A DNA stretch of 27,973 nucleotides. It comes from a virus (Duplodnaviria; Heunggongvirae; Uroviricota; Caudoviricetes). The number at the start of each line of letters is the position of its first letter. The stretch's first letter is position 1. The notes beneath the pieces were generated by a model, which was given only the letters and a program-made list of their open reading frames with translations, ran no database searches and was not told the DNA's origin. The stretch lies in IMG/VR virus record IMGVR_UViG_2531839664_000024. One strand, written 5' to 3'. Made by a program: the position numbers and the translations under genes. Of this stretch, positions 2,006 through 4,113 are shown piece by piece.

Positions 2006-2287
2006 TCACCGTTCCTTAAAGACGCCGTTCAACATGCCGATCGCCAGGCTTAAATGAGTCGGTGTGAATCCCATCAGCGTTACCGTTTCGCGGTGCTTCT
2101 TTAGTACGCTACGGCAAATGTCATCGACGTTTTTATCCGGAAAATGCTGTCTGGCTTTTTTGATTTCAGAATTAGCCTGACGGGCAATGCTGCGAAGGGC
2201 GTTTTCTTGCTGAGGTGTCATTGAACAAGCCCCATGTCGGCAAGCATAAGCACACAGAATATGAAGCCCGCTGCCAGAAAAATGCAT
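2006..2287 (-). CDS. Hypothetical protein; start uncertain (ATG at 2287 abuts the IS end, internal ATG at 2221), possibly 5'-truncated by the IS/deletion
   Basis: ORF followed by a terminator-like hairpin; reading frame stays open into the IS left end, so the native N-terminus may be lost. Confidence 0.4.
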   Translation of the reverse strand: MHFSGSGLHILCAYACRHGACSMTPQQENALRSIARQANSEIKKARQHFPDKNVDDICRSVLKKHRETVTLMGFTPTHLSLAIGMLNGVFKER

Positions 2288-2343
2288 TCTGAACCGCCCC
2301 GGGAATCCTGGAGACTAAACTCCCTGAGAAAGAGGTAAACAGG

Positions 2344-2670
2344 ATGACTAAAAATACACGTTTTTCCCCTGAGGTCCGTCAACGGGCAGTTCGTATGGTT
2401 CTGGAAAGTCAGGGCGAATATGACTCACAATGGGCGGCAATTTGTTCCATTGCCCCAAAGATTGGCTGTACACCAGAGACTCTGCGTGTGTGGGTTCGTC
2501 AGCATGAGCGGGATACCGGGGGCGGTGATGGTGGACTCACCACCGCTGAACGTCAGCGTCTGAAAGAGCTGGAACGTGAAAATCGTGAACTGCGCCGCAG
2601 TAACGATATCCTTCGCCAGGCTTCCGCTTATTTTGCGAAGGCGGAGTTCGACCGCCTCTGGAAAAAATAA
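2344..2670 (+). CDS. IS3-family transposase OrfA (HTH/leucine-zipper part)
   Basis: 108-aa [22 protein letters not shown]...; stop TAA overlaps the orfB ATG (ATAATG). Confidence 0.9.
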
Positions 2671-3557
2671 TGCCACTGCTGGATAAGCTGCGTGAGCAGT
2701 ACGGGGTCGGACCGGTATGCAGTGAGCTGCATATTGCCCCGTCAACGTATTACCACTGTCAGCAACAGCGACATCATCCTGATAAACGCAGTGCCCGTGC
2801 TCAGCGCGATGACTGGCTGAAGAGAGAGATACAGCGCGTATACGATGAAAATCATCAGGTGTACGGTGTGCGTAAAGTCTGGCGCCAGTTGTTACGCGAA
2901 GGTATCAGGGTGGCCAGATGTACAGTGGCGCGCCTCATGGCGGTTATGGGACTTGCCGGTGTTCTCCGGGGTAAAAAGGTCCGTACTACCGTCAGCCGGA
3001 AAGCCGTTTCCGCAGGCGACCGCGTAAACCGTCAGTTCGTGGCAGAACGTCCTGACCAGCTGTGGGTGGCTGATTTTACTTACGTCAGCACATGGCAGGG
3101 CTTCGTCTATGTGGCGTTCATCATTGATGTGTTTGCCGGATGTATCGTGGGGTGGCGAGTCTCATCGTCTATGGAAACGACATTCGTGCTGGATGCACTG
3201 GAGCAGGCGTTGTGGGCCCGTCGGCCGTCCGGCACAGTCCATCACAGTGATAAAGGTTCTCAGTATGTATCACTGGCCTATACGGAGCGACTAAAAGAAG
3301 CAAAACTGCTGGCATCAACAGGGAGTACAGGTGACTCGTATGACAACGCGATGGCGGAGAGCATCAATGGTCTTTACAAAGCGGAGGTAATACACCGTAA
3401 GAGCTGGAAAAACCGTGCAGAAGTGGAACTGGCCACACTCACGTGGGTGGACTGGTATAACAATCGACGATTGCTGGGAAGGCTGGGTCATATCCCTCCG
3501 GCAGAAGCAGAAAAAGCTTATTATGCTTCCATCAGAAACGATGATCTGGCAGCCTGA
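2670..3557 (+). CDS. IS3-family transposase OrfB (DDE catalytic domain), in -1 frame relative to OrfA
   Basis: 295-aa ORF with DDE-transposase hallmarks (WVADFTY...HSDKGSQY...DNAMAES); A6 run just before the orfA stop. Confidence 0.9.
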   Translation: MPLLDKLREQYGVGPVCSELHIAPSTYYHCQQQRHHPDKRSARAQRDDWLKREIQRVYDENHQVYGVRKVWRQLLREGIRVARCTVARLMAVMGLAGVLRGKKVRTTVSRKAVSAGDRVNRQFVAERPDQLWVADFTYVSTWQGFVYVAFIIDVFAGCIVGWRVSSSMETTFVLDALEQALWARRPSGTVHHSDKGSQYVSLAYTERLKEAKLLASTGSTGDSYDNAMAESINGLYKAEVIHRKSWKNRAEVELATLTWVDWYNNRRLLGRLGHIPPAEAEKAYYASIRNDDLAA

Positions 3558-3599
3558 GTTCACAGATAAAACACTCTCCAGGAAAACCGGGGCGGTTCA

Positions 3600-4113
3600 G
3601 TCAACAAAAAGCAGCTGGCTGACATTTTCGGTGCGAGTATCCGTACCATTCAGAACTGGCAGGAACAGGGAATGCCCGTTCTGCGAGGCGGTGGCAAGGG
3701 TAATGAGGTGCTTTATGACTCTGCCGCCGTTATAAGATGGTATGCCGAAAGGGATGCTGAAATTGAGAACGAAAAGCTGCGCCGGGAAGTTGAAGAACTG
3801 CGGCAGGCCAGCGAGACAGATCTCCAGCCAGGGACTATTGAGTACGAACGCCATCGACTTACGCGTGCGCAGGCTGACGCCCAGGAGCTGAAGAATGCCA
3901 GAGACTCCGCAGAAGTGGTGGAAACCGCATTCTGTACTTTCGTGCTGTCACGGATCGCAGGTGAAATTGCCAGTATTCTTGACGGGATCCCTCTCTCGGT
4001 ACAGCGGCGTTTTCCGGAACTGGAAAACCGACATGTTGATTTCCTGAAACGGGATATCATCAAAGCCATGAACAAAGCAGCCGCGCTGGATGAACTGATA
4101 CCGGGGTTGCTGA

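Follow-up and report, generated by a model that had tools for sequence, protein, structure and literature searches.

In the prophage described here, an IS629-like insertion sequence (IS) joins the integrase-proximal genes directly to codon 3 of the gene for Nu1, the terminase small subunit, with no target-site duplication, which raises the question of whether the element simply inserted at this place or took part in removing the DNA that once lay beside it. A preliminary description of the locus had proposed the latter, in the form of an IS-mediated adjacent deletion of Nu1 codons 1-2, cos, and everything between the int-proximal and the packaging genes. We examined this proposal in the window, by which we mean the whole 27,973-nucleotide stretch of DNA that was analysed (IMG/VR record IMGVR_UViG_2531839664_000024; all positions refer to it), and by comparison with an intact phage and with complete Escherichia coli genomes.

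A DLP12-site prophage and its IS629-type element

Positions 1650-2440 and 1690-4199 of the window were 100% matches to E. coli O121:H19 RM8352 (NZ_CP028110.1), and the window is the prophage at the argU/intD (DLP12) site of this Shiga-toxin E. coli (STEC) strain, bounded in the RefSeq annotation by tRNA-Arg (argU) and intD on the left and by ompT, envY, and ybcH on the right. At the left prophage end, adjoining argU, lies an integrase gene of the intD type (1..1164, minus strand; Pfam Phage_integrase, E = 8e-47; intD in RefSeq). Three further int-proximal genes are retained on the same strand, all annotated in RefSeq and collinear with the gp32-gp34 region of Escherichia phage 2G7b: a DUF4222 gene (1363-1641) and a TraR/DksA zinc finger gene (1689-1907), both also matched in Pfam, and a gene for a 71-aa hypothetical protein (2006-2221). 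To the right of the element, the Nu1 remnant (3600..4139, plus strand, as in the open reading frame list) leads into the retained head and tail morphogenesis genes (4114..22236, plus strand; RefSeq annotation, collinear with 2G7b), which comprise terminase A, W, portal, protease, D, E, FI, FII, Z, U, V, G, T, H, M, L, K, I, and J. A different IS3-family element occupies 22237-23494 within gpJ of the same prophage, flanked by TTT on both sides, and excising it together with one TTT restores a J reading frame of 1137 aa.

The integration site, the integrase type, and the right neighbours ompT, envY, and ybcH are common to this prophage and to DLP12 of E. coli K-12, and both are defective lambdoid remnants. 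DLP12 of K-12 has kept its Q, lysis, and nohD (Nu1-like) region and lost its morphogenesis genes. In the O121 remnant the situation is reversed: Nu1 (minus codons 1-2) through J, stf, and tfa have been kept, and the early, regulatory, and lysis genes have been lost along with cos.

The element at 2290..3599 (plus strand) begins with TGAACCGCCCCGGG, ends with CCGGGGCGGTTCA, and measures 1310 bp, with imperfect terminal inverted repeats of 26 nt (TGAACCGCCCCGGGAATCCTGGAGA and TCTCCAGGAAAACCGGGGCGGTTCA, 88% complementary) that carry the 5'-TG...CA-3' ends. OrfA (2344-2670) matched HTH_Tnp_1 and OrfB (2670-3557) matched rve, HTH_21, and rve_3 in Pfam, with OrfB also scoring 312 bits against NCBIfam transpos_IS3 (cut-off 160), and a full-length ALIL frameshift pseudoknot (Rfam; 120 bits, cut-off 50) was found at 2625-2741. 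The overlapping OrfA (HTH) and OrfB (DDE/rve), set for a programmed -1 frameshift, place the element in the IS3 family. The length and coordinates first given for it were exact. Against RefSeq-labelled copies, including ones named 'IS3-like element IS1203 family', its DNA was 99.5% identical to the one in O157:H7 Balcarce_24.2, with 94.8-96.6% identity to three others; with 1310 bp and 94.8-99.5% identity to these four E. coli copies (threshold at least 90%), it belongs to the IS629/IS1203 group. The IS629/IS1203 elements of Shigella and STEC have the same 1310-bp length, TGAAC...GTTCA termini, inverted repeats of ~26 nt, and OrfA/OrfB -1 frameshift layout with an ALIL, and sister copies make 3-bp duplications; the element itself is no different, and only the flanks of this copy are without a matching duplication. 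Judged by its sequence, it looks like an intact, ordinary IS629/IS1203 isoform.

Mismatched flanks and the missing early region

The IS is bordered by AAAATGCATTC on the left and GTCAACAAAAAG on the right, i.e., by TTC (2287..2289) and GTC, and the right flank, taken from the IS end onward, reads GTCAACAAAAAGCAG. The 3-bp (sometimes 4-bp) target duplication is therefore wanting at this copy, and re-examination of the ends revealed none, which bears out the earlier reading of the flanks. A boundary error or hidden duplication was rejected, as the inverted repeats fix the IS ends at 2290 and 3599, and extension of the element to 2289 and 3600 (C...G) was rejected as chance complementarity of the flanks. 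Four IS629-type insertions in the corresponding prophage regions of other strains served as controls, and all had perfect 3-bp duplications (TTC in O157:H7 NE1169-1, GAG in O157:H7 Balcarce_24.2, AAA in O157:H7 Rafaela_II, and TAA in Z1323CEC0013), as did a fifth control, the gpJ element of the same prophage. Given these perfect duplications, the absence here is real rather than an error of boundary placement, and the mismatched flanks reflect the history of this IS copy and not a trait of the IS629/IS1203 family. Mismatches of this type are not rare, since only 21 of 47 IS629 sites in four O157:H7 genomes were reported with matching 3-4 bp duplications (PMC3271280).

The reference in local BLAST comparisons was 2G7b (NC_049954), an intact phage related to both arms of the prophage. 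Positions 1-2289 of the window aligned without gaps to 28178-30466 of 2G7b at 99.8% identity, and positions 3599-21927 aligned collinearly to 195-18517 at 96.6%. Homology to the phage ends at 2289 and restarts at 3599/3600, exactly at the ends of the IS, which is itself of full length; the endpoint of the missing segment is an IS terminus and the IS has been kept intact, as in a one-ended deletion. The last base of the IS (A, 3599) equals the native base, leaving the joint ambiguous by 1 nt, and the microhomology at the joint is limited to this one A, which is no argument for or against joining through microhomology by the IS-excision enhancer (IEE). The trinucleotide AGT, common to the native left site and to Nu1, was set aside as being out of register with the observed joint.

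Measured against 2G7b, the 1310-bp IS stands, to within 1 nt, in place of 16,871 bp, in prophage order 30467-47142 followed by 1-195 (1-194 if one assigns the ambiguous A to the phage), a result that supports the proposed IS-mediated adjacent deletion of Nu1 codons 1-2, cos, and the intervening DNA. The deleted length of about 16.9 kb should be read as an estimate from a proxy phage, because the right arm is just 96-98% identical to any IS-free relative. In 2G7b this segment, with the early, immunity, replication, Q, and lysis regions and cos, is complete and contains no IS. The genes lost with it include the early genes DUF1382, DUF1317, exo, bet, gam, kil, ral, sieB, and N; the control and replication genes, namely the repressor and cro region (cI, cro), cII, O, P, ren, the nin region, rusA, and Q; and the porin gene, holin, endolysin, spanin, and bor, with cos and Nu1 codons 1-2 at the far end. 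The left flank natively continues as GCATTC/AGTGGTTGTCAT into DUF1382, DUF1317, exo, bet, and gam, and the left site falls between genes, at a point 65 nt upstream of where the 71-aa gene starts and 9 nt past the DUF1382 stop. The left flank is thus not natively contiguous with sequence upstream of Nu1, the arrangement that the preliminary description had named as counting against a deletion; in intact phages it runs into the DUF1382-gam region.

On the other side of the element, translation from 3600 gives VNKKQLADIFG..., which matched positions 3-164 of the 164 positions of the Pfam Phage_Nu1 model (E = 6e-100) and aligned with residues 3-181 of the 2G7b Nu1 with two substitutions, so that the claim that the right IS end abuts Nu1 at residue 3 holds. 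The native sequence around the Nu1 start is gaacaATGGAAGTCAAC, with ATGGAAGTCAAC as the native start and cos, then ATGGAA, as the native upstream order; relative to this, the gene here has lost codons 1-2, the start codon, the ribosome-binding site, and the upstream cos. It is not a full-length lambda-type Nu1 gene, with an N-terminal winged-HTH and cos before it, but a remnant, the first in-frame ATG of which lies at 3672 (Met27). The in-frame sequence 5' of the remnant consists of the OrfB tail followed by two stop codons. A transposase-Nu1 fusion was rejected, for although OrfB is in the Nu1 frame the two stop codons lie between them, and no sigma-70-like site that might act as an outward promoter at the right IS end was found in 3400-3800. 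The deletion accounts for the state of this O121:H19 prophage as a locked-in remnant without an immunity, replication, Q, lysis, or cos region and without a functional Nu1.

TTC and GTC differ by one base, and this likeness could suggest an incidental IS, either one that came to lie at an unrelated, older deletion or one that inserted simply and later acquired a T/G mutation in one copy of its duplication. A match as good as this one, in two of three bases, is reached by about 16% of random triplet pairs, and the likeness is irrelevant since the flanks are contiguous in no relative: the left flank and Nu1 did not adjoin in any of 50,697 phage records and 5426 genomes, and an IS-free GCATTC joined directly to (G)TCAACAAAAAG was not found. 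An insertion into an older joint would moreover be expected to leave a 3-bp duplication, as in the five controls, and it is very unlikely that both endpoints of a 17-kb deletion would fall by chance within 1 nt of the IS termini. We therefore give an incidental IS almost no credence.

Polarity of the event and its distribution in O121

If the element mediated the deletion, one of its two junctions should be the original insertion and the other the novel joint. Two chimeric queries, one for each possible parent, were run against 5426 complete E. coli genomes, the left-site parent being the IS right end followed by TTC and the native AGTGGTTG; the finished Japanese O121:H19 genomes AP024471 and AP024473, which include a lineage L3 strain, lie outside this set.

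The left-site parent query had full-length matches in 18 of the 5426 genomes, none of them O121, and in O157:H7 NE1169-1 and NE1127 the match was a single ungapped piece. In these two strains the insertion reads AAAAATGCATTC/TGAACC...GGTTCA/TTC/TGTTGTTGTCAT, and DUF1382, DUF1317, exo, bet, and gam lie intact beyond it; the inserted IS629 variant occupies the very nucleotide of the O121 insertion, is oriented like the O121 element, and has a perfect TTC/TTC duplication. The IS in NE1169-1 and NE1127 is 95.7% identical to the O121 IS and the prophage left flank 91.6% identical, and the NE1169-1-type insertion is probably independent of the O121 one. Three more insertions in the same orientation lie 7, 40, and ~340 bp from the left site, each with a perfect 3-bp duplication. 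The Nu1-side parent, with cos-ATGGAAGTC joined to the IS left end, was found in none of the 5426 genomes at a query coverage of at least 80%.

Because NE1169-1 carries TTC/TTC at the identical nucleotide and no Nu1-side parent was found, the left junction appears to be the primary one, with the deletion running rightward from the right IS end. NE1169-1 provides the parental flank there in a supportive manner, short of proof. On the most plausible reading the IS originally inserted at the left junction and the right junction is the novel joint, in which case TTC at 2287..2289 (native GCATTC/AGTGG) probably survives from the original 3-bp duplication.

Both junctions occurred together in only nine of the 5426 genomes (RM8352, 2014C-4423, 2014C-3599, 2015C-3107, 16-9255, FWSEC0006, 2002-3211, GTVSS-020, and 2014C-3655), all of them O121 or O121:H19, at 99.9-100% identity, and the right junction alone occurred in none of the higher-ranking matches. 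The deletion is fixed across all nine of these complete genomes, and every complete O121 genome found already has it. A single-IS O121 ancestor, in which the left site would carry the IS and the early region would be complete, was not present among the 5426 genomes, nor was an IS-free allele of the same prophage lineage found, the closest non-O121 right arm being 97.7% identical. The TTC-IS629-GTC junction serves as a clean lineage marker, being present in nine of nine two-junction O121 genomes and in no other of the 5426.

The two arms are unequally similar to their relatives, the left being 99.8-100% identical to phages 2G7b and Turner and the right at most 96-98% identical to anything outside O121, which might point to arms of different origin that were brought together by IS-IS recombination between prophages or sites, through inversion, translocation, or a large chromosomal deletion. 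Lambdoid phages are mosaic, however, and unequal arm identity is to be expected of them. The prophage is also bounded by argU/intD and by ompT-envY-ybcH, and 2G7b likewise has this int on one side and, on the other, ompT with the alpha/beta hydrolase gene, which assigns both ends to a single DLP12-site prophage. The reciprocal junction of the IS right end with TTCAGTGG was absent from O121 among the 18 matching genomes, complementary junctions of either type were found in no O121 genome, and altered synteny of the flanking chromosomal genes was not found. The absence of reciprocal junctions in O121 genomes favours a deletion over an inversion or translocation, and a different origin of the arms appears very unlikely to us.

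Routes to the deletion

That the deletion was IS-mediated, by one or the other of the two routes considered below, is very probable. The route that we favour, and consider the probable one, is an insertion of the IS followed by a one-step, transposase-dependent deletion from its right end. In an ancestor of STEC O121:H19 whose argU site carried a lambdoid prophage of the DLP12 family, an IS629/IS1203-type element would have entered GCATTC/AGTGG, in the space that separates the 71-aa gene from that for DUF1382, and duplicated TTC. A transposase-dependent event at the right end of the IS would then have removed everything up to Nu1 codon 3, a loss of ~17 kb comprising the right copy of TTC, DUF1382 through the lysis genes, cos, and Nu1 codons 1-2, with the IS retained. 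The chemistry could have been an aberrant ('sloppy') strand transfer or a cleavage at the IS end, as proposed in the literature, with IEE resolving the product or enhancing its formation, and the outcome would be a locked-in, non-inducible, and non-packageable prophage remnant.

Adjacent deletions of this kind are documented: IS3 makes them in varied lengths (PMC8860574), and deletions adjacent to IS629, from a few nt to >40 kb, have been described with transposase and IEE (PMC9943667, PMC9397093). The IEE-associated deletions in EHEC of Ooka 2009 and Kusumoto 2011, as these are cited in PMC9943667 and PMC9397093, are described there as starting exactly at one IS end and keeping the IS, as in the O121 prophage, and the ~17 kb estimated here falls inside the range of a few nt to >40 kb given in those citing accounts. 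The likeness to the cited EHEC cases extends to the iee-carrying O121:H19 host lineage and the lambdoid prophage target, the difference from them being that a role for IEE in the present deletion is one that we infer from the lineage. In O121:H19 strains iee is borne by an SpLE1-like element, the gene being intact in most L1.1 strains (PMC9397093); IEE may accordingly be put forward as a possible promoter of the deletion in the RM8352 lineage. The IS3 family transposes in copy-out-paste-in fashion, which on its own regenerates the donor (bioRxiv 10.1101/2023.06.07.543989), for which reason a one-step adjacent deletion needs an extra, incompletely understood resolution step.

A two-step history is possible but less likely: a second IS copy, in direct orientation, would have inserted in Nu1 (ATGGAAGTC/IS/GTCAAC), and RecA-dependent recombination between the two copies would have deleted ~17 kb and one IS, leaving a hybrid IS with half of each duplication (TTC...GTC). 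This route yields exactly the observed product, with TTC and GTC each compatible with one copy of a 3-bp duplication, and IS629-type copies are plentiful, IS-containing queries having 19-26 matching places in each O121 genome. Ten IS629 copies were counted in O121:H19 strain 51104 (PMC9397093), and the majority (62%) of the IS629 copies in O157:H7 sit in prophages (PMC3271280). It calls, however, for two same-orientation insertions and a recombination against one insertion and one event, no intermediate was seen, and an IS629-type left end joined to cos-ATGGAAGTC occurred in 0 of 5426 genomes. We prefer the one-step deletion to this two-step route because no Nu1-side insertion was found, IS629- and IS3-adjacent deletions are documented, and O121:H19 has iee.

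By either route the event is ordinary, well-documented prophage decay, an IS-associated deletion of an already known kind; it adds one further case of IS629-driven decay of a lambdoid prophage in STEC and opens no new biological question. What the comparisons contribute beyond the preliminary description is which way the event ran, how much DNA was lost, that the loss is fixed in the lineage, and a two-step alternative. Activity of IS629/IS600 and of IEE was already known from the STEC lineage O121:H19.

A broader reading, which we consider improbable, is that the TraR/DksA-DUF1382 intergenic stretch is an orientation-specific target of IS629 and that rightward deletion from it is a recurrent, quasi-programmed disarming of lambdoid prophages by STEC hosts that spares the int and morphogenesis modules, in which case these modules might serve recombination with, or complementation of, co-resident Stx phages. 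The stretch, of ~350 bp, has received at least five IS629-type insertions in unrelated strains, at four positions and all in one orientation, two of them at the identical nucleotide.

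Recurrent IS629-type insertion in related prophages

Repeated insertions of IS629/IS1203-type elements were observed in unrelated strains within a short int-proximal stretch of lambdoid prophages, equivalent to about 1945-2289 of the window. These were found in four homologous loci of other strains, at 1888-1890 in L005, 2722-2724 in L006, and 1388-1390 in both L007 and L008. The four insertion positions fall within about 350 bp, share one orientation, and each carry a perfect 3-bp duplication, and one of them is the same nucleotide as that of the O121 insertion. The IS variants occupying these positions are not uniform (94.8-99.5% identity), which suggests that they arose from independent events and that the stretch is a regional hot spot for insertion. 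In a search of 5426 complete E. coli genomes, 18 had an IS right end within or beside this stretch.

IS629-type elements were also present near cos or ylcI in SLK172, Z1323CEC0006, Z1323CEC0005, and PK8241 (matches H119-H122 of the genome search) and in matches H116 and H123, and none of the elements in these strains was located at the O121 junction at codon 3 of Nu1. They lie upstream of that codon, at a distance of about 280 or about 600 bp, so that IS629 also inserts near the packaging region in other strains.

A second IS element and other signs of decay

The gene encoding gpJ is interrupted 24 codons ahead of its stop by a second IS3-family element (22237-23494; 1258 bp) that is distinct from the IS629-type copy, has 26-nt inverted repeats, is flanked by TTT on both sides, and encodes an OrfA that we take to be IS911-like. 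Since removing the element together with one TTT restores a J reading frame of 1137 aa, it is a simple insertion. RefSeq labels J as 'incomplete' and the short J tail as 'homoprotocatechuate 2,3-dioxygenase', the latter of which looks like a mis-annotation.

The stf-like side tail-fibre gene (24319-27389), marked 'frameshifted' in RefSeq, is broken into two ORFs that overlap (24319-25722 and 25683-27389), an additional mark of prophage decay. The first ORF ends in a long out-of-frame Arg/Pro/Gln-rich tail, which places the shift within a repetitive region of the gene. Upstream of int, an excisionase-like HTH gene (1020-1421) has a 133-aa ORF that overlaps the int start; RefSeq annotates an incomplete pseudogene here, at about 1326-1391, and the excision module may thus be damaged as well.

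Variation among O121 genomes and comparison with DLP12

Across Nu1, A, W, and portal (3600-6600), seven of the nine O121 genomes are 100% identical, whereas FWSEC0006 and 2014C-3655 are only 99.0% identical, a difference that points to patchy post-deletion recombination with further resident lambdoid prophages.

The O121 remnant is roughly the complement of the K-12 DLP12 prophage at the same argU site: the former has int and the morphogenesis genes but not the early region, Q, the lysis genes, or cos, whereas the latter retains the region of Q, lysis, and nohD but has lost morphogenesis. Both seem to have their intact equivalent in phage 2G7b.
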